A stretch of 64,000 bases of DNA, taken from IMG/VR virus record IMGVR_UViG_3300005918_000012. One strand, written 5' to 3'. The notes under the pieces were generated by a model. It did no database searches. It was given only the letters and a program-made list of their open reading frames with translations, and had not been told where the DNA came from. This document shows positions 8,018 through 22,878 of this stretch, in pieces. A program made the position numbers and the translations under genes. Source of the DNA: a virus. Positions within the stretch are counted from its first letter, which is position 1. Each line of letters starts with the position of its first letter.

Positions 8018-8965
8018 ATGGCACATAGAGCTTACGTTCTTGCCCAACGAAACGATGTGACTGGGATGAATATCCAAGTCCTTGATCTCAAACCTAACTC
8101 GAGCCAGAAAAGTAGCTCGTATGACGGTGATGGTCAAACCTTTTATTTGAACTCCATCGACACCGCCGGAGTGACTCATATGATTGATAATGGATATGAG
8201 TCAGGCAGTCGTCAAACTATCATGAGTGTCTTTTACGATGCTGTAGCCGATGATACCACCGGTGGTGGTAATGATGTTCTGGCCAACCAGAATGCCTGTC
8301 TTGGTCTAGCAGCTTACCTTCGTGAGCGTGTCCAACCGGGCGGTGTGGCTTCGGCTGTAGCTGGTCGGATGACTTGGGCCCACGCCAACACACAAGCTGG
8401 TGCAATTTTGGCATTAGTTGTTTCAGGTGGTGATTTGACTTTGGCTGGTATCAATGCAGTCTTGTCAAGCGTACCTGATGGTGGTATTGCTGCCACAGAC
8501 CTTGATGGTGCAGCAATTCTTTCTCTGTCCTTCGGGTCAGTAGATGACATTCTCCGTATCATAGCTGGTGAGATTTACCGGTCACCGATGGATTGTATCA
8601 TCTGTACCCAAGCCAACGTGTTTTTGAATTTGGCAAGTAGAGATGCTCTGGTACTTGCTCAATTGCCCGCAGTTACGGGTCAAACCTTCGTGTCTCAGGG
8701 TGCTTTCTTGAGTAATCTGGAAAATGGTTACGAAAGAATTCCAACCTTGGCTGTCACAGGTGACATGTATGCCTCAATGGGTGGTGGTTATCTGTTTAAG
8801 ATGGAAGCTGGGCAGACCTTCAAAAACCCTAACTTTGCTTATGCAGCAGCAGACGTAACTGAGTTCAAACCTCGTGCATATGACCTGAGTGGTGTAGTTA
8901 TCCCTGTTACAGGGACTCTGGGAACTGTACGTGTTTACGATGAAGAAGGAACCAACTTGTTATAA
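8018..8965 (+). CDS. Putative virion protein, paralogue 3 of 3
   Basis: AAGGAGG SD. RNDVTGMNIQVLDLKPNSSQ / GSVDDILRIIAGEIYR / VYDEEGTNLL. Confidence 0.7.
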   Translation: MAHRAYVLAQRNDVTGMNIQVLDLKPNSSQKSSSYDGDGQTFYLNSIDTAGVTHMIDNGYESGSRQTIMSVFYDAVADDTTGGGNDVLANQNACLGLAAYLRERVQPGGVASAVAGRMTWAHANTQAGAILALVVSGGDLTLAGINAVLSSVPDGGIAATDLDGAAILSLSFGSVDDILRIIAGEIYRSPMDCIICTQANVFLNLASRDALVLAQLPAVTGQTFVSQGAFLSNLENGYERIPTLAVTGDMYASMGGGYLFKMEAGQTFKNPNFAYAAADVTEFKPRAYDLSGVVIPVTGTLGTVRVYDEEGTNLL

Positions 8966-8989
8966 AAGGTTGATTCTGTAAGGTTTTTT

Positions 8990-9019
8990 AGACGGAGATC
9001 CCTCGGGGTCTCCGTTTTT
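8990..9019 (+). terminator. Rho-independent terminator
   Basis: agacggagatccc-tc-ggggtctccgttttt. Confidence 0.85.
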
Positions 9020-9095
9020 CTTTAATTAGTCACCCTATATAGGAACCCCGTTTTTTTTGAACGGTGGATAAATACAAACTGACAGGAGAACAGAC

Positions 9096-9341
9096 ATGGA
9101 AAATGAAACCGGGTACAGAACGTCAGATCTTTACTATGCAGCTTACTTGAAAGTGGCTGGTGTGGAATTCAAAGGCACGACTAAGGAAGGAAAACGAGTT
9201 TTCTTCTTGTTTGAGAATGCCGAAGGAATGGCTGATTTGAAGAAGCAGTATTTCAACCGATATGCAAAAGTATCGGCTCTGAGTTTTGCTGACGAAATCC
9301 GTTCGATGAAGAACTTAACTTACATGGAGACCGGAAGCTAA
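9096..9341 (+). CDS. DUF5659-like small protein
   Basis: 'YRTSDLYYAAYLKVAG...EGKRVFFLFE' resembles the phage DUF5659 pattern. AGGAG SD. Confidence 0.7.
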   Translation: MENETGYRTSDLYYAAYLKVAGVEFKGTTKEGKRVFFLFENAEGMADLKKQYFNRYAKVSALSFADEIRSMKNLTYMETGS

Positions 9342-9700
9342 TGGCAACAGTCCTTGCAAATACTCCATTTACGTTCCAAGCATTGTTCTTGGATACGGAC
9401 AATATCCCGATTGTCCCAGTAGATCCAACTATCACTGTATTCATGTATAGTGCTGCTGGGGTAAAACAGGAATTGGTGGCTGCTACTGCAATGGACTCTG
9501 TAACCCCTGTAGAAATAGGACGTTACACCCATACTTACACTTTACCTGATGCTTTTACAGATGGTGATATGATTTATGGTGAAATGACTGGAGAACACCC
9601 GACCAGTGGTGATATTATTCGGTATAGTGAGACTGTGTCAGTTGTGACTCTCCCGCCAGGGTCACAAGGACTTTCGTATAATCTCATTAGAGGTGGTTAA
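9341..9700 (+). CDS. Ig-like beta-sandwich virion protein
   Basis: 'VDPTITVF...IGRYTHTYTLP..FTDG' is similar to the N-terminal domain of ORF 10077. Confidence 0.55.
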   Translation: MATVLANTPFTFQALFLDTDNIPIVPVDPTITVFMYSAAGVKQELVAATAMDSVTPVEIGRYTHTYTLPDAFTDGDMIYGEMTGEHPTSGDIIRYSETVSVVTLPPGSQGLSYNLIRGG

Positions 9701-9703
9701 AAC

Positions 9704-10075
9704 ATGACAGATATGAGAGTTGATTGCCAAATTGAAGTACCGCCGGAACACAAAGTAGGTAGTTTTGCCGATGCTTTCAGAGTTCTAACCAACCCTGAAG
9801 GTGATTGTGTTTTAGATTTCTTGACTTTATCTAAATGCAGGAAACTAGCATTTGTTGTGGCCAGAGTTCGTGTGGAGAAAGAGTTCTTGGAATCTATTAG
9901 AGATCGGTTAGAAGCCACTCTGAGTGAAATCCAAGGTCCTGATTTTTCAGGCATCTCTCCTGAACAAATAGAACAGATGTGGTACGTATCTGATCAAATA
10001 GACCCAGAGATTATTCCTGACGAGGGTGCTTTACCGGTAAGATGGTTTATTTACCCTGAAGGAGAGGTAGACTAA
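9704..10075 (+). CDS. DUF3467-like protein (paralogue of 695-949)
   Basis: See 695-949 alignment. GAGG SD. Confidence 0.55.
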   Translation: MTDMRVDCQIEVPPEHKVGSFADAFRVLTNPEGDCVLDFLTLSKCRKLAFVVARVRVEKEFLESIRDRLEATLSEIQGPDFSGISPEQIEQMWYVSDQIDPEIIPDEGALPVRWFIYPEGEVD

Positions 10076-10076
10076 G

Positions 10077-10976
10077 ATGGCAGTTGCATTTACTCCCGGG
10101 CAAACAATAGGCCGAGGGGACTTGGATATTTTCTTACAAAATGTTCAAGGGAATCCAGCTAATGCTGCTGAGATTTATTACACCCTTTATTATGTGAGTC
10201 CTGGACCACCTGAATCGGAAGTACAAGTAGGTCAGCCTCAAAGGATACCAGTAAACCCTGCCGTTGGGGAGTATTATGCTTCTCTGATGATTCCGCAAGG
10301 AGCTACGGCTGGAACTTATCGTATTCGTTGGACTTTTAGAGAGTTGGTTAATTCACCTCAGCAACAGGTTGTTCAAGAGTTTGCTGTCGTGACGGCTGCT
10401 GGGATTGCATTAGTTCCGGGATACGATGCTTCTCAGACGGCTATGATGAGAAGCCTTCGAATGCTTCTCAGAGACCAGAACCCTGACAAATTCTATCATT
10501 TCCGTCCTCCTGAGTATGAAGGGGACATCGGCCAGTATAATCGGATCTTTGGGCAGATATGGGAAGACGAAGAATTGCTGGAGTATTTATTGAGATCTTT
10601 GGATTGGTTCAATATGCAACCACCGTTGACTCAGAAGATCAATACTCTCAGATTGTTGATTCAAGATATGCCTGCATGGAGAACGGCAATCCTCTGGGGT
10701 GCTATCACCCACGCTTGCTTTGCATTGTCTATGAACTGGGTAGCAGATGAGTTTGATTATTCAATCGGTGGTGTAAGTCTGTCGATTGAGAAATCTTCAA
10801 AGTATGAGTCCTTGAAGCAGAATGCTGAGGGACAAATGGATAAAGCAACAGAAGCCAAGCAGAGAACAGTGAAATTCATCCGAGGTCTTCAACAGCCTCG
10901 GTTTGGTATGGGTGTTAGATCGGCCTTTGGACCGTTCGTTGGCAACGGGGTGCTTTCACCGAGGAATTTTATTTAG
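10077..10976 (+). CDS. Putative head-tail adaptor (Ig-like N-terminal domain plus helical adaptor domain)
   Basis: Helical 'LRMLLRD...WEDEELLEYL' followed by the beta-hairpin 'DYSIGGVSLSI' typical of adaptor proteins, plus position. Confidence 0.6.
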   Translation: MAVAFTPGQTIGRGDLDIFLQNVQGNPANAAEIYYTLYYVSPGPPESEVQVGQPQRIPVNPAVGEYYASLMIPQGATAGTYRIRWTFRELVNSPQQQVVQEFAVVTAAGIALVPGYDASQTAMMRSLRMLLRDQNPDKFYHFRPPEYEGDIGQYNRIFGQIWEDEELLEYLLRSLDWFNMQPPLTQKINTLRLLIQDMPAWRTAILWGAITHACFALSMNWVADEFDYSIGGVSLSIEKSSKYESLKQNAEGQMDKATEAKQRTVKFIRGLQQPRFGMGVRSAFGPFVGNGVLSPRNFI

Positions 10977-11050: not shown

Positions 11051-12313
11051 ATGTCAGTTATATGTCCGTATTGTGGAAAAGAGTTTAAGGGAGATAAATT
11101 AAACTCCCGTCATTTATCAAAATGCAATCCTGCTTTAAAAGTTCCTGTTGAACCTTGTCTTTGTGGCCATGTCTCTACATCCTTAACTCAAATGAAAAGG
11201 CATAGAAAGAAATGTGAGGTTTGGCAAAATAGAGATAAGAAACAAGTAGCTCTGCAGCGTCAAGAAAAAACTGTAAAAGATAAATATGGGGTGAGGAATA
11301 TACGACAGGTTCCAGAATTAGAAGAGAAACGATTACAAACAATCCGGGGTAAGTATGGTGCAGATAATGTTTTTTGTAAAGAATCCTCAATTTTTGAAAA
11401 GGTTCAAGAATCCTTAGTAGGGAAACGTAAAGGTTTAAAAGGGAAAGATAATCCTTTTGCTTGGGATTCAACTAAAGAAAAAATAAAAAAAACAATGCAG
11501 GAAAGTTATGGTGTAGACAGTCCTCAACAATCTCAAGAAATCCGGGATAGAACTAAAAGTACAAATTTAGAACGCTATGGGTTTGAGTGTTTGCTGTCTG
11601 ATCCTGTTATAAGGGATCGGATAAAAGAGACATGTAAGGTTAAATATGGAGGTCCAGCTCCATCCTGTTCTTCTGAAGTCCGTGATAAACAAACAAAAAC
11701 AAATCTAAAATGTTGGGGTGTTCCTTGGACAGCTATGCATCCTGATATCCGTCAAAAACAATTAGAGACGATGAAAGAACATTATGGGTCTCATTTCTTT
11801 GCCTCGGAAGAAGGGAAGGCTGAAATTCGTCGTGTTATGATGGAACGGTATGGTGTCGAATTTCCTGGAGCAATGGTTGGGCATTGGGAAAAAGCACTGG
11901 CTACTTTTAAGAAAAATTATCCCAATACGGCATATCCTGGTTTATTGGCAGGACGAGGTGGCCCTAATATGCTTGAACGTAGAATACACCAGTTAATCCC
12001 TGATGCTATTTATACAGGGGATGGTAGTTTTTGGCGTTGGTTGCCTTTATTAGGGCATTTTAAAAATCCTGACTTTATTTTTCCCGGTCCAGATCCAAAT
12101 CATCCTATGAGGAATGTGACTAAGGTCGTGGAAGCCTTTGGATCTTATTGGCATTCTCGGATATTTACAGGTAAATCGAATTTTAAGCATGAGCAAGAGT
12201 TAATAGATTCTTATGCAGGTATTGGTTTTGATTGTTTGATTATCTGGGAAGATGATGTAAAGTCAGATATTGAATCTGTTCGTACTCGGTTGGTAGAATT
12301 TGTGGGAGTCTGA
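11051..12313 (+). CDS. Free-standing putative homing endonuclease (Zn fingers + 'KYG' repeats + Vsr/DUF559-like PD-(D/E)XK domain)
   Basis: CPYC..H..C and CLC..H..C fingers. About 8 repeats of 'K-x-T-x-x-(E/K)(K/R)YG'. C-terminal 'KNPDF...VVEAFGSYWH...GFDCLIIWE'. AT-richer than its flanks. Confidence 0.75.
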   Translation: MSVICPYCGKEFKGDKLNSRHLSKCNPALKVPVEPCLCGHVSTSLTQMKRHRKKCEVWQNRDKKQVALQRQEKTVKDKYGVRNIRQVPELEEKRLQTIRGKYGADNVFCKESSIFEKVQESLVGKRKGLKGKDNPFAWDSTKEKIKKTMQESYGVDSPQQSQEIRDRTKSTNLERYGFECLLSDPVIRDRIKETCKVKYGGPAPSCSSEVRDKQTKTNLKCWGVPWTAMHPDIRQKQLETMKEHYGSHFFASEEGKAEIRRVMMERYGVEFPGAMVGHWEKALATFKKNYPNTAYPGLLAGRGGPNMLERRIHQLIPDAIYTGDGSFWRWLPLLGHFKNPDFIFPGPDPNHPMRNVTKVVEAFGSYWHSRIFTGKSNFKHEQELIDSYAGIGFDCLIIWEDDVKSDIESVRTRLVEFVGV

Positions 12314-12425
12314 CATCAATAAAAAGCCTGAGATTACGGTTAAAAGGATTCAAAGGTTCTTAGGTTTTCGGTAAAGTATGAATTATTACCTGTTAGTGTG
12401 TAGTTTTGGTCTGATAGGAGTTCTT

Positions 12426-13802
12426 ATGGATGCTTATAGAATAGTGAAATCTAAGGTAGATAGAAATCTAACTCAGAAGTTAAAAAAATTAAAGCCTAAA
12501 GCTCGTTCTATGGGTGACTTTACAGGCGGTGTTTTACAGGCAGCCTTTTATGCCCGTAAAACAGGTGAGACCTATTACCTTTACTCTGGTAATAATTGGG
12601 GTAATGAAGTTTGGCGGGTGTCCTATAGGAAATCCGATTATTTGAATGGTGTGAATAATCCATATGGTAAGTTACTATCCGTAACTCCCGATATGGTAGT
12701 TACGGAGCATACTTTGAAAAGAATTAAAAAAGAAGCAGCAGCTTGGAAATCACCTGCAATCAATAAATCATTAGCCCAAAAGGTTAATAAAGCAGTGAAA
12801 AAACATTTCGTGACGGATCTTTTGAATGATCTCATAACAAAGAAGAAAGATTGGCGTATAGGGCTGAGATCAGCTATTGGTAAAGCAGTTGCTCCTACTC
12901 AGATGCAGGATCGGATTGATGCTCAGGCTCCAATCAAAAAGTGGCTTAAATCTATCTCTGATAGAGATTTGGAGAAAGTTCGGGATTGGGTAGAAGAAAT
13001 CCAAAACAAAGGGAAAAGTGTTCAATACAAAACTAAACCGGAGGCTTGGAAAAGAGCAAGTACCAAAGAAGCTGGTGGTTTAAGCAGTGCTTTAGATTTA
13101 TTGTTTTCAATCATAGGCCAAGGATCATCTTCTAAAGGTGAGAAGATGTTTAAGGATACCAAGAAAGCACTGAAAACTGATGAGCAGTCCAAACAGATGA
13201 TGACAGGTGTTATCCGAAAGGTAGCAATGTCTTTAATACTTGACCAAAAGGAAAACACTGCTTTAAATTACATTATTATGGCAATGAGGAATGTTAAGGC
13301 TGACGGAGCTGCCAGGAACTCTATCTTCAAGGCTGCTAATATCTTAGGTATGAAACTTCCAAGTTCCATGTTTGCATCTGAGGACTCTGAGTTACGAGAA
13401 CAATTGGTTAAATTAGCTAATGACAACCCTGATATGAGAAAACACCTGATTCCCATTCTCAAAGAAACTAATACCAAAAAAGCTAGTGCTTATATCATTG
13501 ATGACCTCAAGAAGCTTTTTTCTGATGGTGTTAAGTCGGGTGTAAAAGAAGTGACTAAGTTTAGTGGCCCAACTCAACAGCACCATCAAGATCGGTTGGC
13601 AAAGGGGGCTGAACAAGGGTCTCTTGATTACATTTCAGGAATTCAACGTGATTTAAAAGTAATTGAGCGTGGTATTAAGTCTAATCATCAAATACCTAAG
13701 ATGGCTTCCATTTCTTTAACCTCTGGGTTACAAGGGTTATATTGGGTAGCCGGTGAATTGGTTGGTTATGAGTCTGTGGAGGCTTTTAAGAAAAAGGATT
13801 GA
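12426..13802 (+). CDS. Modular basic protein containing the KLAN module (putative internal head polyprotein)
   Basis: AGGAG SD before the ATG at 12426. Contains ELREQLVKLANDNPDMRKHLIPILKE and several K-x-A junctions. Confidence 0.7.
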   Translation: MDAYRIVKSKVDRNLTQKLKKLKPKARSMGDFTGGVLQAAFYARKTGETYYLYSGNNWGNEVWRVSYRKSDYLNGVNNPYGKLLSVTPDMVVTEHTLKRIKKEAAAWKSPAINKSLAQKVNKAVKKHFVTDLLNDLITKKKDWRIGLRSAIGKAVAPTQMQDRIDAQAPIKKWLKSISDRDLEKVRDWVEEIQNKGKSVQYKTKPEAWKRASTKEAGGLSSALDLLFSIIGQGSSSKGEKMFKDTKKALKTDEQSKQMMTGVIRKVAMSLILDQKENTALNYIIMAMRNVKADGAARNSIFKAANILGMKLPSSMFASEDSELREQLVKLANDNPDMRKHLIPILKETNTKKASAYIIDDLKKLFSDGVKSGVKEVTKFSGPTQQHHQDRLAKGAEQGSLDYISGIQRDLKVIERGIKSNHQIPKMASISLTSGLQGLYWVAGELVGYESVEAFKKKD

Positions 13803-13804
13803 TT

Positions 13805-13966
13805 ATGTGTTTTTGGAAAAAGAAAAAAGACCCTCCCCTTATATTCAAGGATTTTGGTGACGGCAATGGTGAGATAACCTGTGGTGGGAAAACCACAAAG
13901 GTTATTTATTTTTCAGAGGCTGCTGTAAAGCATATTGAAGCAGCAAAGAAAAGGATGTCTAAGTAA
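13805..13966 (+). CDS. Small hypothetical protein (53 aa, not in ORF track)
   Basis: MCFWKKKKDPPLIFKDFGDGNG...KRMSK. AAGGA SD and TAATG overlap with the next gene. Confidence 0.55.
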   Translation: MCFWKKKKDPPLIFKDFGDGNGEITCGGKTTKVIYFSEAAVKHIEAAKKRMSK

Positions 13967-14337
13967 TGTGGTGGGTTTACGTTTTACAATCTCAGCAACC
14001 TCGTGCAAATGGCCGGCCTGGGTTTCATTATGTGGGATGCACAACTGACCCTGCACGTCGTATAAGGCAGCACAACGGTGAAATCAAGGGAGGTGGACGT
14101 TACACCTCTAAACACCGCCCGTGGCTGCCTGTGGCCTTATACGGGACTTACAGTGGGCAATCTGAGGCTATGAAAGCTGAACGTGCCCTGAAACGTGGTA
14201 AGAGAAGTACTGGCCGGACTAAATGGTCAACTTCTGATTCTCCTTGGTGTCGAGGACTTGGTCCGAAAGACCCTTGGATCACTGATGGTATTTCCCCTAT
14301 AGAAGCCTATAAGAAGAAGGAGTCTTTTAATGGATGA
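13966..14337 (+). CDS. GIY-YIG nuclease, Slx1-like
   Basis: WVYVLQS...YVGCTTDPARRIRQHNGEIKGGGRYT...RPW...EAMKAERALK. Confidence 0.9.
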   Translation: MWWVYVLQSQQPRANGRPGFHYVGCTTDPARRIRQHNGEIKGGGRYTSKHRPWLPVALYGTYSGQSEAMKAERALKRGKRSTGRTKWSTSDSPWCRGLGPKDPWITDGISPIEAYKKKESFNG

Positions 14338-14885
14338 ACGATTGATAAAACTAACCAAAGATGAAAATAGGAGATAACAATGAGTAATCTACGAGATAAA
14401 ATAGCCAAACTGGCCAATGAAAAACCGGAGCTTCGGAAACATTTAATGCCGATCCTGAAACAGGCTGGTGATGATGATGAACTCTTAGTGTTCGATCTTT
14501 ATCGTGGGATTCCAAGTGTTGGTAAGGAGTTATGGAACCAGATGCGGGAAAATGACCTGGATGATAGATTAATTCAGTTTTCTCGAAAACCGGGTGACTG
14601 GGGAGAGGTGCGGAAGAAGGTTCGGGTGAATGCCCTGCCCCCAGAGTTCCAAAAAGCAATAAAAAACAAAAAAATCCCAACTGCCGTAATCCCGACGGCA
14701 GTTGAGTTGTGGGCTGTGGAGTTTTCAAACACCCTGAAAAATGCACTGTTGGTTTTGCTCGTCCATAACCGGAAATTATATCTGGTCAATACGGAGGGGT
14801 ATAATTATCCAAGATACATGGTGCAACTCACCTGACCCAGGAGAGATAAACAAAAGAAGAAGGAGTCCTTTAATGGATGAACGAT
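14311..14885 (+). repeat. 32-bp direct repeat (14311-14342 and 14854-14885) flanking ORF 14380
   Basis: aagaagaaggagtc(t/c)tttaatggatgaacgat, 31/32 identical. Confidence 0.9.
14380..14835 (+). CDS. KLAN-module protein (module at N-terminus)
   Basis: MSNLRDKIAKLANEKPELRKHLMPILKQAG. AGGAG SD. Confidence 0.8.
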   Translation: MSNLRDKIAKLANEKPELRKHLMPILKQAGDDDELLVFDLYRGIPSVGKELWNQMRENDLDDRLIQFSRKPGDWGEVRKKVRVNALPPEFQKAIKNKKIPTAVIPTAVELWAVEFSNTLKNALLVLLVHNRKLYLVNTEGYNYPRYMVQLT

Positions 14886-15991
14886 ATTTAGAGCTGTTCC
14901 CGATTATAAATGCAGCCGTTAAAAAATACCTGGTTCGGTCTAAATACATAAAACGAATCAGACTCAAAGGTAAAGACAAACACTCAATTCTATATAGTGT
15001 GGAATGGACATTTGAACCTAACAAAGCAGCTCCAATATCACATTATTTCTCAGTAAGTAGCACAGGGAGAACTCTTTATTTGGAGTTGGATGTTCCTGGA
15101 TTTCATAGTCATTCATCACCAACGGAAAAGAAAATGGATTTAGAGATTGCTCTTAACCGACCGGGTAAAGTTAAACAAGTAATAAAAGATATTGCTCAGA
15201 ACGCTGTGTCTGTAGCATCAAATGTAGTGTCTGATATGGAAAATAATATTCATCACTACTCCAACTTACAAGATAAAGTACAGAAGTTGGCCAATGACAA
15301 CCCTGAACTCAGATCTCATCTTGTTCCAATTCTCAAAAAGCAGGCTGGTGACAGTAAGAGACATATTCATAATGCCGAAGTCTATATGGGGAAAGGGGAT
15401 GAGTTTCATAAAAAACCCTTAAAAGAACAAAAAGCCATCATGATGAAAGCCATCACTAATGCTAAACAGAAATGGAAAAAGGTAGATGGTATCCTGACAG
15501 ACCTGAGCAAATCTTTTGATGGACACCCGAATCCGGGTCAGGCAATGGCACCTATTGAGCAACCTGTGGATTACGCCATTGATGCTATCATGATTGCAGT
15601 GATCATAGCCAACAAGTACAATGCTAACAAGAGAAGTATGAAAGCTGCTATTTTCAAATATGATTCCTCAACACCGATAGATAAAAGGGTTCTGATTAGA
15701 AACCTTAATAAAGTTCTTGGGGGTGTTTCCAGAGGGTTCTTCACCGATGAGCATTGGAGAGGCCCCAAGAGAGTTTGGGAAGCTTTAAATAAAATAGGTA
15801 TCACCTGGGATCAAACAAAGAACTTCTACGATAATAAAATGCCCAATGAATCTAAAACCTGGAAGTTTGAGCTTGAGTTTACCTCTAAAAAAGGCAGACC
15901 CGGTAAATTGTATGGCCACATGGTAGCCTCTGGTGCAGGGTCTGTAGCTGATCCTCTGAGTCGTTACGATGTTGTAGTTTATGTAGGTTAG
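14873..15991 (+). CDS. KLAN-module modular protein
   Basis: AAGGAG SD before the ATG at 14873. Internal NLQDKVQKLANDNPELRSHLVPILKKQAG. Confidence 0.8.
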   Translation: MDERYLELFPIINAAVKKYLVRSKYIKRIRLKGKDKHSILYSVEWTFEPNKAAPISHYFSVSSTGRTLYLELDVPGFHSHSSPTEKKMDLEIALNRPGKVKQVIKDIAQNAVSVASNVVSDMENNIHHYSNLQDKVQKLANDNPELRSHLVPILKKQAGDSKRHIHNAEVYMGKGDEFHKKPLKEQKAIMMKAITNAKQKWKKVDGILTDLSKSFDGHPNPGQAMAPIEQPVDYAIDAIMIAVIIANKYNANKRSMKAAIFKYDSSTPIDKRVLIRNLNKVLGGVSRGFFTDEHWRGPKRVWEALNKIGITWDQTKNFYDNKMPNESKTWKFELEFTSKKGRPGKLYGHMVASGAGSVADPLSRYDVVVYVG

Positions 15992-16003
15992 GGAGAAATT
16001 GAT

Positions 16004-16801
16004 ATGTCAATACCAAATTTGAAACAAGTAGCTGACAAGATTTATAAAGCCTTAAAATCCTTAGCAGAAGTGGCATCAGTTAAACCACCTAAGTTCTATG
16101 ATGCTATGAAGCCATCCATAAGTGGTAAATGGGTTATAAAGATGGAAGTCCCGGAAGTTCGGACAAGTTCTTTCTTCGTTCAGGTTAATATGGATGGAGT
16201 AGCTTGGTCAGGGGATCAGCCGTATCCTATTGAGGAAGCTATACTGAAAATTATTAAACCTCTTAAGATAAGTCGTCCTATGCGGTTCAAGCATATGTTA
16301 GGTCCTCAAGGATTACAGTTTCTGTGGGCTGGTAATTATGCCGTACATGCAAATTTACAGGAACAAGTACAGAAGTTGGCCAATGATAACCCTGAGATGA
16401 GAAAACACCTAGTCCCCATTCTGAAACAGGCTGGTGGGGGGATATATCAAATTTTCTTTGATATGTTTGGGAAAGCCTTTAAAAAATCTTGCACCGAGAT
16501 GTACGGCCAATTTTATCGTGATTACAGTTGGGATGACATTGAAGGAGTGTCTTCAAGTATCAAACCAGGGCTTTGGGAAGTAGTTTCCAAGTACGGTCCT
16601 ATGGTTGCAGTTTCTTATCATGCACAACCTACAAAACTGACTATTACTTGTAGTCTTCGAAATCTTCGACATAGGATGGAAGAAGAGAGACAGGTTGTTT
16701 TTTTAGAGAAGTTCTTAGCTAAAGATATGACTGAGAAAGATATGCAAGCCTTTATTATGAAATTCGTTATTAGCTGTGCTAAGAAGACTTGGAGAGGATA
16801 A
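16004..16801 (+). CDS. KLAN-module modular protein
   Basis: Internal NLQEQVQKLANDNPEMRKHLVPILKQAG. GGAG SD. Confidence 0.8.
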   Translation: MSIPNLKQVADKIYKALKSLAEVASVKPPKFYDAMKPSISGKWVIKMEVPEVRTSSFFVQVNMDGVAWSGDQPYPIEEAILKIIKPLKISRPMRFKHMLGPQGLQFLWAGNYAVHANLQEQVQKLANDNPEMRKHLVPILKQAGGGIYQIFFDMFGKAFKKSCTEMYGQFYRDYSWDDIEGVSSSIKPGLWEVVSKYGPMVAVSYHAQPTKLTITCSLRNLRHRMEEERQVVFLEKFLAKDMTEKDMQAFIMKFVISCAKKTWRG

Positions 16802-16802
16802 A

Positions 16803-17279
16803 ATGCCTAACTTACAAAATAAAATAGCCAAACTGGCCAACAAGAATCCGGGGTTAAGAAAACATCTGGTACCATTACTGAAAACAGCTAGGAAAGCCCC
16901 TGAAGCTTATATTACCATAGACAAGGATGCTATCTATTTCAGCTACAGCTATTTTTTACCTCCCATAGGTTGGGTTTCGGACATGGGTCAGCATCAACTG
17001 TTCTGTCAGAAATTATTGGAACGAACCATTGATGCCATCCAGAAAGAGTTTGGTGGTAAAACCAAGAAACGTCCGACCAAGATGCATTTTGCTTTGGATG
17101 ACAATAAACGTATGGTTCTGACAGGTCCAGCTCCGGCAGCTACGGGTGTGCTTGGTATAGATATTGAAAATCTGCTTGTTGAGGATGGGGGAGACAAACG
17201 ACCATTTATTAAAGCAGTCCAACAAGTATTCAAGAAATTAGGCTGGGATGTGAAAAGCTTAGATCATATGGCTATCTGA
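16803..17279 (+). CDS. KLAN-module protein (module at N-terminus)
   Basis: MPNLQNKIAKLANKNPGLRKHLVPLLKTA. GAGG SD before the ATG at 16803. Confidence 0.8.
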   Translation: MPNLQNKIAKLANKNPGLRKHLVPLLKTARKAPEAYITIDKDAIYFSYSYFLPPIGWVSDMGQHQLFCQKLLERTIDAIQKEFGGKTKKRPTKMHFALDDNKRMVLTGPAPAATGVLGIDIENLLVEDGGDKRPFIKAVQQVFKKLGWDVKSLDHMAI

Positions 17280-17686: not shown

Positions 17687-17953
17687 ATGGTAGATGAAAA
17701 AAGAGCAGGAGTTGGGAATCGTCGGGTATATTCTTATGTATCTGATGACGGGACTGTCTATTGGTCTCTTACTAAAGCCAAAAAGACTGTGTCCAATGGA
17801 CAGCGTTTAGTATTACAGAGCCGTAATGGTTCACCGTTGCTTCCTTTCATGTCATATATGAGAGATCAAGCAGCTTTGATGGATAAAGAAGCCTCCACTG
17901 AGGTCAATGATGACACTCAGTTGGAAAATAACAAACAGACGAAAGGAAATTAG
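17687..17953 (+). CDS. Hypothetical protein
   Basis: GGAG SD. Confidence 0.65.
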   Translation: MVDEKRAGVGNRRVYSYVSDDGTVYWSLTKAKKTVSNGQRLVLQSRNGSPLLPFMSYMRDQAALMDKEASTEVNDDTQLENNKQTKGN

Positions 17954-18445
17954 ATGCCAGACAAGAAAAAAGATTTAGGAACAATCAGCCAGCCGGACGA
18001 GGAGACTAAATCAGGTCTTCCCACAGGAGATGACGAGAGCAAAACAGCTTCCGAACTTCCTACCGGGGATGAAGAAGCTCCTGAAGCTGATGTACCACCT
18101 ACAGCAATTGGTGATGCCCCAGCAGATGACAAGGATGATAATCCTGATCCAAGTTTCTTAGGGACGATTGAAGAATCAGAACAGGAAACTATTATTGCTC
18201 TCCAACAGAAGCATCAGCAGATGGTGTATCAGTTGGGTAATGCAGTTCTTCAACTGTTCGGCTCAGTCGATCAAATCGGTGGGGTTTCTGAACAAATCCA
18301 AGGTGTTTACACAGGTATCGGCAAACGCTTAAATGTCGGTCCTAAAACTCGGTGGACGGTAATGCAGGACGGGTCTGTCCGTGTCGTACCGGAACAACCT
18401 GGCCCACAGGCAGTTCCTCCACAGGGAGATAAATCGGAGAAGTAA
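17954..18445 (+). CDS. Hypothetical protein with acidic disordered N-terminus and coiled coil
   Basis: AAGGA SD. Abuts both neighbours. Confidence 0.65.
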   Translation: MPDKKKDLGTISQPDEETKSGLPTGDDESKTASELPTGDEEAPEADVPPTAIGDAPADDKDDNPDPSFLGTIEESEQETIIALQQKHQQMVYQLGNAVLQLFGSVDQIGGVSEQIQGVYTGIGKRLNVGPKTRWTVMQDGSVRVVPEQPGPQAVPPQGDKSEK

Positions 18446-19858
18446 ATGAGTGCATCAGGATGGGGTCCATCTCCAGGGGATCAGCCGTTACCACCTCAAA
18501 ATGGTTCAGTGCAAACCCCCTATATTGCAGGTGTTCTTGACCTGAATTGGGATAACCCATCTCTGTTAGCTAAGAATGCTGCTTATACGGTAGTTGGGGT
18601 CAACGTCTATAGATCAGATGTCTCGGACCGCGGCCCTTTCTACCGGATTAATGAATTCCCCATCGGTGGGACGTTCTATCGAGATTGGACTCAAAATGTT
18701 CAGATTACGGAAGCAGTAACTTGGGCAGATTGGACGTACAAAGGTGACGGTCCAAATACTCGAAAGTATAGTTTCTCCACTAAACAACGCCCAATAGTCA
18801 AACAGATACCCGAACCCCCCTATGACCGACCCACTCCTGCTAATGCCGTCACAGAGGTAACTGTGACCATTGATGGTGTGGAAGTGACTCCTAACTCAAT
18901 ATTCGGCCCCACAGGGGAGATAGTCCTCATTAACCAAGGGTACTTTGATGTAGTCACAGAGAAAAATGTGGCTGCCGTCCTACCTACTGAGAATTCAGTG
19001 GTAGAAGTATCCTACTGGGTCAATCGAAACCATATCCGTTCCAGCTTGGATACCAGTTTATTTTACCGGTTAACTACTGTAGTCACAGATTCTGAAACCC
19101 CGAGTGGTTATAAAGAAACAGATTTAGAATGGTGTAAACCTATTCTATCGTCAGCAGTCGAGGATATGGATTACATTTGGAGAGAGGCTGTACGACGAAA
19201 TGCTTGGATTCTCCAACAAGGTGGAGAACGAGTTAAGGTTTTCATTCGACGAACTACAGGGGTCACTTGTGATTGTGGTTTAAACCCCAGAACAAAAGAG
19301 TATCTTGGACAACACTCTCAACGATGTGATGTTTGTTATGGTACTGGTTTTGTTGGTGGGTATGAAGGTCCTTATGAGGTCATCATTGCCCCAGACGACT
19401 TTGAACGCCGGATCAGTCAAGGTATGACAGGACGACGGAAAGAACATAGCGGAGAAGTCTTTATGGGACCAAGTCCTGTAGTGACTCAACGTGATTTTGT
19501 GGTGAAGCAGACTAATGAACGATATTCTATTGGTCCTGCCCGACGGCCAACAAACCGTGGGAATATGCTTCAACAGCATTTCAATATTGCTTACCTGGAC
19601 GAACAGGATATCAGGTATCAAGTGCCTCTTGATGGTACTTCTGAATTCGTCAGACCTGAGACTCGATATGGCTTCCGACAGTATCCTTCGATGCCTGTAG
19701 ATGGGGAACTAAACTTCCCAGAATCCACAGCTCCTGACCAAGCAGCTTATCCTGAGGGTCCTGATTCTCAGACTCCTATGCAGACAGATAAAGAACCGTG
19801 GGCAGAGGGAACTCAGCAGAGAGGGCGTACTCCGGTTTGGGAATCACAAAATGAGTGA
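18446..19858 (+). CDS. Putative neck/head-closure protein with FN3/Ig-like domains and a Zn-binding motif
   Basis: FN3-like 'LDLNWDNP...VVGVNVYRS'. The motif 'GERVKVFIRR...CDC...RCDVCYGTGFVGGY' is typical of large-myovirus neck proteins. Confidence 0.6.
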   Translation: MSASGWGPSPGDQPLPPQNGSVQTPYIAGVLDLNWDNPSLLAKNAAYTVVGVNVYRSDVSDRGPFYRINEFPIGGTFYRDWTQNVQITEAVTWADWTYKGDGPNTRKYSFSTKQRPIVKQIPEPPYDRPTPANAVTEVTVTIDGVEVTPNSIFGPTGEIVLINQGYFDVVTEKNVAAVLPTENSVVEVSYWVNRNHIRSSLDTSLFYRLTTVVTDSETPSGYKETDLEWCKPILSSAVEDMDYIWREAVRRNAWILQQGGERVKVFIRRTTGVTCDCGLNPRTKEYLGQHSQRCDVCYGTGFVGGYEGPYEVIIAPDDFERRISQGMTGRRKEHSGEVFMGPSPVVTQRDFVVKQTNERYSIGPARRPTNRGNMLQQHFNIAYLDEQDIRYQVPLDGTSEFVRPETRYGFRQYPSMPVDGELNFPESTAPDQAAYPEGPDSQTPMQTDKEPWAEGTQQRGRTPVWESQNE

Positions 19859-19891
19859 TTCATTTAATGATTTCAAATACTTAGGTGAGTC

Positions 19892-20518
19892 ATGCCACGT
19901 ATAGACTACAATCGAATCAGGGCTACCTACGGGAAAACATGGGCTAAGACGGGTAAGGTCGAGATAGATGATTCTCTTCTTGATTTGATTGGGGATATAT
20001 TAGTAGATACCGTTAGGATTGAAGCTAAGAATGAATTTGTGAAACGTGGTTGGAAGATGGAAGACCCTCAAGGTGGTCCACCTATCGGGGATTCTTTCAA
20101 GTATGAGATTCTCGGTGATCGAACTGTTGTACTCAATTCAAGTTTTTATGGTTTAGCTCAGTTAACCTCTAAAGAGGGTATCCCTGAGCGGAGAATGACT
20201 TGGTTGACTCAGCAAGGGCAACAGAGGAATGTTAAGTCGAAGGAGCAACGGGCTCGGGAATCTCGAATGGGGAAAAAGTTCAAGACTTCTTCCTCAAAGT
20301 CTCCTTTAGTTGTTCCTTTAACAACAAAGACAGGTGAAGTTATTTTTAGAATGGCTCCTTTGAAGATGGCCGATGCTTGGATTCATCCGGGTATTGCCCG
20401 GTTTAATTTCTTTGAGAGGGCTTTAAAAAAAGCACGGGTGAAAGTGGATACCCTTGTGACTGAATATTGTGGTAATGTCATCAGTGCTGGGATAGCCGAG
20501 GCGTTTAATAATGGTTGA
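19892..20518 (+). CDS. Putative neck/tail-completion protein (HK97 gp10/Ne1-like)
   Basis: Basic protein with the C-terminal 'WIHPGIARFNFFERAL' motif, located after the head-closure gene. Confidence 0.6.
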   Translation: MPRIDYNRIRATYGKTWAKTGKVEIDDSLLDLIGDILVDTVRIEAKNEFVKRGWKMEDPQGGPPIGDSFKYEILGDRTVVLNSSFYGLAQLTSKEGIPERRMTWLTQQGQQRNVKSKEQRARESRMGKKFKTSSSKSPLVVPLTTKTGEVIFRMAPLKMADAWIHPGIARFNFFERALKKARVKVDTLVTEYCGNVISAGIAEAFNNG

Positions 20519-21116
20519 AGCTCAAATAATATGTACATGCCCTTCGATCTGGATAGCAGATTTGAAGTTGGATATGAAAAAAGGTCAGTCAGCAACTGTC
20601 CCAGAGGTTCAGGCTCGTGCTTCAAAGGATCTGGAATTAGCTAATAAAAACGGTGGTGTCAGTGTCACATATATTGAACGATATAAAGAACTTCGACCAC
20701 CCCCACAGGAGAGGCAGCCTATAGTTGTGAAACCTATCCCGAAGATTATTCAGCCCCCTAAAGTGGAGAAGATTAAGTTGGATGAGGATGCACTGGCTAA
20801 ACGTCTGGCAGAGAAAATGGGTTCTTTACGAGATTCTAAAACGAATGACCTGATTGAGAAATTGATTGGGGAAGTTATATCAATGAAGAAGGAAATGAAT
20901 GACAGACCTCAAGTTGTGAGAGAAGTTGTGAGAGAGGTTGGCCATTCTAAGGGTAAGATAAAGAATGATGTTCCAATGTTCATTCCTAAAACTATTATGG
21001 ATGAAGCAGCAAGAGATGTTGATCTGAAAATTAAAGAAACAGTATCCGAAGGTAATGTTGATGAAGCTGCCGAAGTTCTACGTGCTTTACGGAAAAAGAA
21101 AAAGGAAAAGGTTTAA
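20511..21116 (+). CDS. Hypothetical protein (small N-terminal domain, Pro linker, coiled coil, basic C-terminal helix)
   Basis: GAGG SD. Overlaps the upstream gene. Confidence 0.7.
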   Translation: MVEAQIICTCPSIWIADLKLDMKKGQSATVPEVQARASKDLELANKNGGVSVTYIERYKELRPPPQERQPIVVKPIPKIIQPPKVEKIKLDEDALAKRLAEKMGSLRDSKTNDLIEKLIGEVISMKKEMNDRPQVVREVVREVGHSKGKIKNDVPMFIPKTIMDEAARDVDLKIKETVSEGNVDEAAEVLRALRKKKKEKV

Positions 21117-21118
21117 AA

Positions 21119-21466
21119 ATGAATATAAATGTGGAAATAGATGCTACAAAATTAAACTGGAAACACCCTGACCCAGATACTTGTGTAACAGAAATAGGTT
21201 ATTACACTTTGATAATAAATACAGGTGACAAACCACAAGCACAGGCACGAAAAGACCCTGAAGGTTCTGTAGTATTTATAAGTTTGAAAAAACCCTCTAA
21301 ATATTCAAACTATTCAGAAGAAGAACTTAAAAGTCTTTTAGTAGGGGAGTTTTTCGGTTGGTTGGAGTCTAGGTATTCTGATGAACATTTGGAATTTTTA
21401 AAAGTTCAGTGGAAACAAGAGCATTCCGATTGTATTACCGAGGTTTTGAGATTAACAAACACATGA
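21119..21466 (+). CDS. Hypothetical AT-rich accessory protein
   Basis: ORF with lower GC than its neighbours. Confidence 0.6.
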   Translation: MNINVEIDATKLNWKHPDPDTCVTEIGYYTLIINTGDKPQAQARKDPEGSVVFISLKKPSKYSNYSEEELKSLLVGEFFGWLESRYSDEHLEFLKVQWKQEHSDCITEVLRLTNT

Positions 21467-21500
21467 AAATGTGTTTGAATAGGTTAAAGGAGAATAAATC

Positions 21501-22544
21501 ATGACCGATGAAACGAAACCAGAAGAAGCAAAACCAGCAGTTAAACCCGTCCCAGTTCCTCTAGGCATCGGGCTCGATATCGGAACTATGAATATTGTTG
21601 CTGCCCGTCGTGGGGGGAATGGCATTCAATCCAAACGGATGCGGGATGTATTCATCAGTTTACCTCTGACAGCCAAGAAGATGTTGAAATTGTCTGATAC
21701 CAGCTTTGTTGAGCGGGAAGATGACGTTTTGATTCTAGGAGACGCAGCTCTGGAAATGGCTAATGTTTTTGGCTCTCAACCTCGACGACCACTTTCAGAA
21801 GGAATCATTTCAGCTAGTGAAGTGGATAGTCTGGAGATTCTCGGATTACTTATCAAGAATGTTCTGGGAGAACCCCGAACAGAAAAAGAGCATTGTTACT
21901 TTTCTGTTCCGGCAGTTCCAGTTGATTCTGATAGAGATGTTATCTATCACCGAGGAGTTTTTGAACGTATTGTTTCAGAGTGTGGTTATACCCCTCATGC
22001 AGCCAATGAGGCTATGGGGATCGTATACTCTGAGACAGCTAAAGAAGGATTCTCTGGGATCGGTATCTCCTTCGGCTCAGGGATGACCAACGTGGCCTTG
22101 TCCATCAATACTATTGAAGGTTTGACGTTCTCTGTGTCACGAGGCGGTGATTGGATTGATATCGGTGCAGCCGGCTCTGTAGGTCAAACACAAGCTCGGA
22201 TATGTGCCTTGAAAGAAAAGGGTTTTGATTTAACTAAACCTATGGGTCGGGAACAAGAAGCTTTGGCATTCTATTATAAATCGGCCATTGATTATGCTTT
22301 GGATAAGATTGAAGAACGGTTCAAGTCTATTCAGAATCAATTCTCTCTGTCTAAGCCTATTCCTATTGTGATTTCTGGTGGTACAAGTAAAGCTGGTGGC
22401 TTCATGGATTTCTTTACCGAAGTTTTTGAGAAACGTCGGAAGAAGTTCCCTATTGAAGTTTCTGAGTTACGACATGCCAAAGAACCCCTAAATGCTGTAG
22501 CTTACGGGCTGCTGATTCAAGCTATCCAAGAACACGAGGATTAA
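21501..22544 (+). CDS. Actin-like (MreB/MamK/ParM superfamily) ATPase
   Basis: Phosphate-1 'GIGLDIGTMN', connect-1 'NEAMGIV', phosphate-2 'GISFGSGMTN', 'GGDWID', adenosine 'VISGGTS', connect-2 'PLNAVAYG'. Confidence 0.9.
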   Translation: MTDETKPEEAKPAVKPVPVPLGIGLDIGTMNIVAARRGGNGIQSKRMRDVFISLPLTAKKMLKLSDTSFVEREDDVLILGDAALEMANVFGSQPRRPLSEGIISASEVDSLEILGLLIKNVLGEPRTEKEHCYFSVPAVPVDSDRDVIYHRGVFERIVSECGYTPHAANEAMGIVYSETAKEGFSGIGISFGSGMTNVALSINTIEGLTFSVSRGGDWIDIGAAGSVGQTQARICALKEKGFDLTKPMGREQEALAFYYKSAIDYALDKIEERFKSIQNQFSLSKPIPIVISGGTSKAGGFMDFFTEVFEKRRKKFPIEVSELRHAKEPLNAVAYGLLIQAIQEHED

Positions 22545-22545
22545 G

Positions 22546-22878
22546 ATGGAAGACTTAAAGTTGTGTGGTGCTCTACAAAAGATAGCAGACGAGAACCCTG
22601 AAACTAGGAAACATCTGATTCCTATTATCAAACAAGCTGCAAAGAAAACTATGAAGGTAACGGAACTCCCCCCGAAGGAACGAAAGATTGCCGAAAAGAA
22701 AATGGCCAAAGGTTATAAATACATATGTCAGTTTACTACGATTGACGGTGATTTAGATCCGATGTATTTCAAATCTCCAAATGAGATTGGACCTTTTAGG
22801 CGTCAGTATCAGAAGGACCACGGCACAACAAAAATAAAGTGGACTTTCAGATTAGAACCTGCAAAAGGTAAGAAATAA
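22546..22878 (+). CDS. KLAN-module protein (divergent module at N-terminus)
   Basis: LQKIADENPETRKHLIPIIKQAA. GAGG SD. Confidence 0.75.
   Translation: MEDLKLCGALQKIADENPETRKHLIPIIKQAAKKTMKVTELPPKERKIAEKKMAKGYKYICQFTTIDGDLDPMYFKSPNEIGPFRRQYQKDHGTTKIKWTFRLEPAKGKK

Follow-up and report, generated by a model that had tools for sequence, protein, structure and literature searches.

A peptide module of about 27 residues recurs in six genes, all for strongly basic proteins, of a 64,000-nucleotide stretch of DNA from an uncultured huge phage (IMG/VR record IMGVR_UViG_3300005918_000012), the whole of which is called the window below. We found that the module belongs to an undescribed family spread over hundreds of protein clusters, and comparisons among its copies indicate that it is selected as a peptide and marks the joints of domain swaps. 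Our preferred, though tentative, reading is that the module may be a position-independent helix-turn-helix docking handle that gathers mostly basic client proteins on one common assembly.

Six copies of the module in the window

The six carrier genes all lie on the plus strand and hold one copy each, five of them at 12.4-17.3 kb and the sixth at 22.5 kb. Core coordinates are those of the 24-residue core of the module.

12426..13802, plus strand: gene 1, 458 amino acids (aa), isoelectric point (pI) 9.9; cargo domain, internal module (core 13392-13463), second cargo of 112 aa
14380..14835, plus strand: gene 2, 151 aa, pI 9.5; N-terminal module (core 14389-14460), then cargo
14873..15991, plus strand: gene 3, 372 aa, pI 9.7; cargo of 131 aa, module (core 15266-15337), 97-aa insert, cargo of 116 aa
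16004..16801, plus strand: gene 4, 265 aa, pI 9.5; 117-aa domain, module (core 16355-16426), cargo of 124 aa
16800..17279, plus strand: gene 5, 159 aa, pI 9.7; N-terminal module (core 16812-16883), then cargo
22546..22878, plus strand: gene 6, 110 aa, pI 9.7; N-terminal module (core 22561-22632), then cargo

Three of these starts were refined. Gene 1 now begins at 12426, with AGGAG 5 nt upstream, in place of the longer open reading frame starting at 12378; gene 3 begins at 14873; and gene 5 begins at the ATG of the MPNLQ reading (16800-16803) in place of the GTG at 16776. The module is thus N-terminal in genes 2, 5 and 6, and internal in genes 1, 3 and 4. The six copies share the consensus L-R/Q-x-x-[VI]-x-K-L-A-N-x-N-P-x-L-R-K-H-L-x-P-I-L-K, or in full S-N-L-Q/R-x-K-[VI]-x-K-L-A-N-x-N-P-E-L-R-K-H-L-V-P-I-L-K-Q-A.

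To detect the module independently, a profile was built from 48 modules of other contigs, with the window sequences excluded, and run over all six frames of the window. It recovered exactly the six copies, at 47.5-63.5 bits (E 5e-14 to 4e-19), whereas the runner-up reached 6 bits; with a window-derived profile, the maximum in 20 shuffled windows was 9.2 bits. When the module was masked, an all-versus-all BLASTP of the six proteins gave a best E of about 1, and the flanking domains are therefore unrelated at the sequence level. A preliminary description of this DNA, made from the letters alone, had listed the same six copies, had called the domains around them otherwise unrelated, and had noted that five of the copies end in K-x-A. 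All three observations hold: the endings are KQA, K-KQA, KQA, KTA and KQA, and in the gene 1 copy KKA follows a few residues later.

The carriers also share a basic character. The pI of the six proteins is 9.5-9.9, compared with a median of 5.4 for the 41 other genes of the window (Mann-Whitney p 9e-5), and family-wide the median pI is 9.2, with 73% of members above 8. The module of gene 6 is of a second subtype, K-I-A-D-E-N-P-E-T-R-K-H-L-I-P-I-I-K, and is nearer to the modules of contig G001 (L007) than the five island copies are, which suggests separate ancestry or exchange between phage lineages.

An undescribed family in viral and metagenomic contigs

We searched the six-sequence profile against 1.84 billion representative proteins and found that 883 protein clusters match at E≤1e-3, 52 of them at E≤1e-10. 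Cargo and module position vary among these clusters; a profile scan of the genome and its relatives for such diversity had been called for in the preliminary description. A profile search of IMG/VR gave 20 loci, contigs of 381, 435 and 536 kb among them. Every source inspected was a viral or metagenomic contig, including genomes of 381-536 kb, and all ten clusters that were looked up proved to be metagenomic. Whole-record searches revealed 7-12 module copies per contig in five viral contigs. The published uncultured 485-kb phage LR745208.1 carries 11 copies, dispersed over both strands, and this unannotated phage was also the sole match in a tblastn search with two carriers.

Other searches returned nothing that covers the module. 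No match to the region turned up when 50,697 phage records were searched by megablast, and two strict peptide patterns found no relative in 185,579 prokaryote genomes, although these patterns are narrow and absence is not proven by them. Pfam-A, PHROGs v4 and NCBIfam 20 hold no family that covers the module, as scanned with the six window proteins and 147 representatives. A PDB sequence search with a 54-module profile returned nothing at E≤10, and the ESM Atlas gave no usable match. A literature search on the motif strings and on capsid-targeting work found no description of the module either. The module is thus absent from curated families and from the literature searched, that is, undescribed. 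Even without a function, the profile lets annotators split seeming orphan proteins into module plus cargo.

Selection on the peptide and exchange of domains at its edges

The six copies are 51-77% identical in nucleotide sequence, and one third to two thirds of the residues that are identical between copies use different codons. Low DNA identity together with differing codons points to selection on the peptide and not to a recent DNA repeat; on this sequence evidence, it is the protein that selection has preserved. No exact DNA match between two carrier genes is longer than 22 bases; the two matches of this length, and most of the other long ones, lie inside the module.

Comparisons with relatives revealed where the carriers have been joined. 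In at least eight of them, the boundary of homology lies no more than about three residues from an edge of the module, and a given cargo can be free-standing, fused upstream or fused downstream. In gene 1, residues about 201-346 match proteins that consist of cargo and a C-terminal module (P0004, P0083, L006), and for residues 321-378 the match is P0057, where an N-terminal module is followed by cargo. Gene 1 thus joins two units by way of a single module common to both, and its architecture is the product that would be expected of recombination between two module-coding stretches. The N-terminal part of gene 3 matches P0023 and L001 8240-9037, and its C-terminal part matches L001 9064-9975 from the end of the module of that L001 protein, which has a different N-terminal domain. 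The last 116 residues of gene 3 directly follow the module in P0023 and in P0102, the latter being an N-terminal module with the same cargo. In gene 4, homology to the free-standing proteins P0002, L001 9992-10447 and L002 9989-10450 (149-154 aa) begins at residue 116-117, a breakpoint two residues before the module, and the cargo of gene 6 matches P0018 and P0042. By these alignments, the module marks the joints of domain swaps, and the pattern of breakpoints illustrates clearly how domains are shuffled in nature via a shared peptide joint.

The five clustered genes lie in a variable island between conserved flanks (upstream window 8018-10973, downstream 17687-22541). In the window and in the relatives L001, L002, L004 and L007 this island sits between conserved head-side and neck-side genes, and its content of module genes differs among them. 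The preliminary description had proposed that the module also serves as a recombination hub at the DNA level. The breakpoints at the module edges bear out one part of this proposal; a role of the DNA itself in swapping is plausible but limited, because no stretch shared between copies exceeds 22 identical bases, and such stretches always lie inside the module.

A related explanation gives the module no binding role at all: it would be a neutral stable spacer, the coding sequence of which is kept as a homology patch for endonuclease-driven cassette recombination. We regard this as very improbable. Breakpoints at the module edges, the 22-nt matches inside the module and the presence of a GIY-YIG gene and a homing-endonuclease-like gene in the island are what it would lead one to expect, but the DNA is only 51-77% identical and has many synonymous differences, whereas conservation of the peptide is strong and extends to invariant polar residues, which is the opposite of what would be expected of a DNA-level element.

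The modules of one genome resemble each other. Modules on the same contig are 66% identical, compared with 58% between contigs (permutation p 5e-4), and they show genome-specific signatures.

Position, copy number and conservation of the module

The anatomy of the family was counted in the 150 best representatives, which hold 251 copies, and a logo was made from 244 copies. We found that 113 of the 251 copies are N-terminal, 108 internal and 30 C-terminal. One copy occurs in 75 proteins, two in 56, three in 17, four in two and five in one, so that half of the representatives carry 2-5 copies. Many multi-copy proteins consist of little beyond modules and low-complexity linkers rich in K, E and D, and these linkers are often acidic. 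Few cargo domains could be recognised, and they are diverse (WGR, zinc ribbons, one GNAT and leucine-rich repeat variant (LRV) repeats).

The logo reads [M/S]-S-[S/N]-L-R-x-x-[L/V]-[I/V]-[K/R]-L-A-[H/Y/N]-E-N-P-E-L-R-K-H-L-[L/V]-P-L-L-K-x-A. R19 and P24 are present in 100% of the 244 modules, A12 in 96% and P16 in 94%, and an Ala two residues past the final Lys is present in 50%; C-terminal copies end before this Ala. Both predicted helices bear conserved hydrophobic positions beside the conserved polar R, K and H, and the conserved surface would seem to exceed what a two-helix hairpin could bury alone. The net charge of the module is +1 to +6.

These features bear on the proposal of the preliminary description that the module is a T4-like N-terminal leader. 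The internal proteins of T4 are basic and have 10-19-residue N-terminal propeptides that target the core and are cut by gp21 (PMC9026906). By analogy, the module would be a capsid-targeting sequence (CTS) that binds the prohead core and is cut by the prohead protease after K-x-A, and the cargo would be injected with the DNA. Like the CTS of IPI, IPII, IPIII and Alt (PMC9026906), the module is one short element common to unrelated small basic proteins, is found in a variable locus and is portable in principle; in the window the carriers have a pI of 9.5-9.9 and the island content differs among relatives. The island also forms part of the late structural region, with head genes on one side and neck genes on the other, its cargo is hypervariable, the small basic carriers resemble the basic T4 internal proteins, and 45% of copies begin at the first residues of the protein. 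Furthermore, K-x-A is about two-fold enriched in the K/E-rich head-module proteins of two relatives (11 versus 5.0±2.0 and 10 versus 4.0±1.8).

However, the CTS is 10-19 residues long, strictly N-terminal, ends in a gp21 site and is removed, whereas the module is a predicted folded hairpin of 27 residues with no sequence similarity to the CTS, and not a 10-residue leader. It is found N-terminally, internally, C-terminally or in tandem: 55% of copies are internal or C-terminal (three of the six in the window are internal), and proteins with 2-5 copies are as common as those with one. The K-x-A enrichment is weak and is expected in helices rich in Lys and Ala, and the major capsid protein (MCP) of G002 begins directly at its conserved N-terminus, so that it offers no processed site for comparison. 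The module is missing from the head-module genes of G001 and G002, and many carriers lie far from structural genes. A T4-style leader with cleavage is therefore doubtful in our view. Because the Ala of K-x-A is only half conserved and is missing in C-terminal copies, the motif lends no support to a cut site and is readily explained as the end of helix 2. Of the portable packaging tag and cleavage site that had been suggested, what stands is a portable unit on shuffled cargo, under selection as a peptide; the K-x-A cut site and the strictly N-terminal leader do not.

Two further sequence features were seen beside the module in relatives. In P0018, P0019, P0042, P0006, P0020, L029:2100-3134 (minus strand) and L040:2840-3805 (plus strand), a second recurrent acidic motif, which does not occur in the window, stands about 30 residues upstream of the module; it reads F-[D/N]-P-x-[E/D]-I-G, followed by a stretch like F-T-Q-x-E. 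The cargo behind it in L029 and L040 is a WGR domain (PF05406, E 3e-6). The 1071-aa protein P0139 has two true modules, each directly before an LRV array (PF01816, E 6e-36), and is the sole case seen of the module abutting a solenoid repeat domain. The sequences gave no clear sign of kinship between the module and LRV repeats: hhalign of the module profile against six LRV repeats of P0139 gave P 0.56, both profiles being short, and none of the six window proteins matches LRV or HEAT in Pfam.

Predicted structure of the module

Structures were predicted with AlphaFold2 (AF2). For the product of gene 4, the model shows, at low confidence, two helices separated by a break at D-N-P-E (mean predicted local distance difference test (pLDDT) 49.6), and it was too poor for fold searches. 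A clearer model was obtained for P0118, a protein of 86 residues with two modules. Here each module is predicted to form a helix-kink-helix hairpin (pLDDT 80-84) that breaks at the N-P-E turn, and the linker is disordered (pLDDT under 50; predicted template-modelling score 0.49). A Foldseek search of the PDB with this model found nothing. In a wide structural search, it superposed on generic four-helix bundles over 60-67 residues, with Z 5-6.4 and root-mean-square deviation 2.4-3.0, and thus the two hairpins pack on each other in the model. This is suggestive of a four-helix bundle formed by two modules in one chain.

A hairpin of this kind has a precedent in phage capsids. The P22 scaffolding protein binds coat through a C-terminal helix-turn-helix, which has been used to load foreign cargo into P22 capsids (PMC9965877, PMC9962691); such a hairpin can thus dock cargo to a capsid (PMC9965877). 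By description, the likeness is that of a small basic helix-turn-helix that docks a flexible protein on a large assembly and serves as a fusion handle. A hairpin of about 30 residues is what the AF2 models predict for the module, with pLDDT 80-84 in P0118 and with low confidence in gene 4. In P22, however, a single C-terminal copy is present on one scaffolding protein, whereas hundreds of cargo families carry the module, and in G001 and G002 it is missing from the scaffold-like protein next to the MCP.

A proposed docking handle for basic client proteins

The module is found at any position and in any copy number, it combines conserved hydrophobic and polar residues, and it is joined by flexible linkers to unrelated basic carriers. 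Together, these properties argue for a folded docking handle over a threaded or cut terminal signal. We propose that the small folded hairpin may tether diverse, mostly basic clients to one common assembly, either by self-pairing, in which two hairpins would form a four-helix bundle, or through one phage-encoded receptor. Proteins with several modules and disordered charged linkers would then act as multivalent cross-linkers, and proteins with a single module would be clients. A shared handle on every unit would let recombination between module-coding stretches fuse, split and re-pair cargo without loss of function, and such recombination between shared handles could explain the variable gene island.

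Cellular systems offer partial parallels to this layout. With the Rubisco-binding motif of pyrenoid proteins and EPYC1, clients have a single copy and cross-linkers have several, spaced by disordered linkers; the single-client and multi-copy linker arrangement is the same, by analogy only. The encapsulation peptides of bacterial microcompartments and the cargo-loading peptides of encapsulins are short tags, helical and amphipathic, found at one end or the other of diverse cargo, connected by flexible linkers and directed to one shell or hub. These are single helices of about 10-20 residues in cells, with a known shell partner, whereas the module has two helices, occurs in multi-copy proteins in a viral context and has a putative partner.

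As the destination of the carriers, we consider a body associated with DNA most likely, and the inside of the phage head ranks first among the candidates. This suggestion, made by analogy, follows from the location of the island between head-side and neck-side genes and from the resemblance of the basic, variable, tag-sharing proteins to T4 internal proteins. In its most specific form, which we hold to be unlikely as a whole, the self-pairing 27-residue hairpin would be a universal address: linkers and clients would form an internal body, associated with DNA, which would be packaged into the head and then delivered to the host, and the coding sequence would be the recombination joint of an injected toolkit. 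If so, the module would be a natural position-independent protein-delivery tag.

Several observations weigh against the docking-handle reading. The head-module proteins of G001 and G002 (the acidic scaffold-like protein and the MCP) lack the module, and many carriers are encoded well away from the structural genes. A single AF2 model, of moderate confidence, underlies the four-helix packing, and the program is prone to bundling helices; Z values of 5-6 are usual for helical bundles and indicate a common arrangement, not a specific match. The likeness of modules within a genome could equally come from recent duplication or gene conversion as from co-evolution with a partner. In addition, the basic charge of the carriers would suit any role associated with nucleic acids.

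The last point is the basis of another explanation, in which the module is a basic nucleic-acid-binding element and its carriers are associated with DNA or RNA inside the infected cell and are not packaged. The module's net charge of +1 to +6, its invariant Arg and conserved Lys and His, the basic carriers, the WGR domains and zinc ribbons among the few recognisable cargo domains, and the dispersal of module genes genome-wide on both strands all fit this explanation. A direct DNA reader would not, however, typically consist of two short helices whose conserved face is mainly hydrophobic; Pfam gave no match to SAP, HeH or HTH families, and the linkers between modules are often acidic. We therefore consider direct nucleic-acid binding quite improbable. 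If the module is instead a docking or loading handle, as we prefer, it defines a large unannotated class of huge-phage proteins, comprising hundreds of cargo families with hardly any known domains, and it provides a simple way to find its carriers as well as a compact fusion tag that is seemingly usable anywhere in a protein.

Genes in and around the island

Three other genes in or near the island were annotated:

11051..12313, plus strand: homing-endonuclease-like gene at the upstream edge of the island (PF24308, E 5e-33; phrog_3339 'homing endonuclease')
13966..14337, plus strand: small GIY-YIG nuclease gene inside the island (Pfam PF01541, E 3e-11; 123 aa)
21501-22544: volactin-type actin gene directly before gene 6 (PF25216, E 8e-76)

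All relatives examined (L001, L002, L004, L007 and L009) have a homologue of the GIY-YIG gene within the module island or next to it. The GIY-YIG protein is similar in size to YhbQ/Slx1, has no DNA-binding extension, and is 97% identical to the L004 copy and 70-76% identical to the L001 and L002 copies. The homing-endonuclease-like gene is present in L007 and L009, and absent from L001, L002 and L004.

In G001, G002 and G004 the volactin gene has a conserved position behind the neck-side genes, and it is absent from the complete 536-kb G003. Its location raised the idea that the module could be a peptide adaptor through which cargo is tethered to filaments of the volactin-like actin, in the manner of the ParR C-terminal helix or a WH2 motif. 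Gene 6 directly follows the actin gene, and in G001, G002 and G004 the actin gene is a few kb downstream of the module island. G003, however, lacks volactin yet has seven modules, and in L021, L022 and L023 the gene that follows the actin gene is without a module, so that the adjacency is not conserved in relatives. We rejected this idea as extremely improbable.

Just upstream of the MCP in G001 and G002 lies a gene for a very acidic protein of 492 or 543 aa (L024:10429-11904, plus strand; L025:4707-6335, minus strand), which is probably a scaffold or core protein. It opens with a repeated P-G-Y-[G/D]-x-E-D-x-D-H-P-A-H and carries no module. Several Pfam matches of the window and of the representatives are to families that come mainly from haloarchaea (Volactin, DUF7487, the HVO_2753 zinc-binding pocket, DUF7717, DUF7129 and DUF5795). 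The genes nonetheless have strong AGGAG ribosome-binding sites, and the group is one of salt-lake phages.

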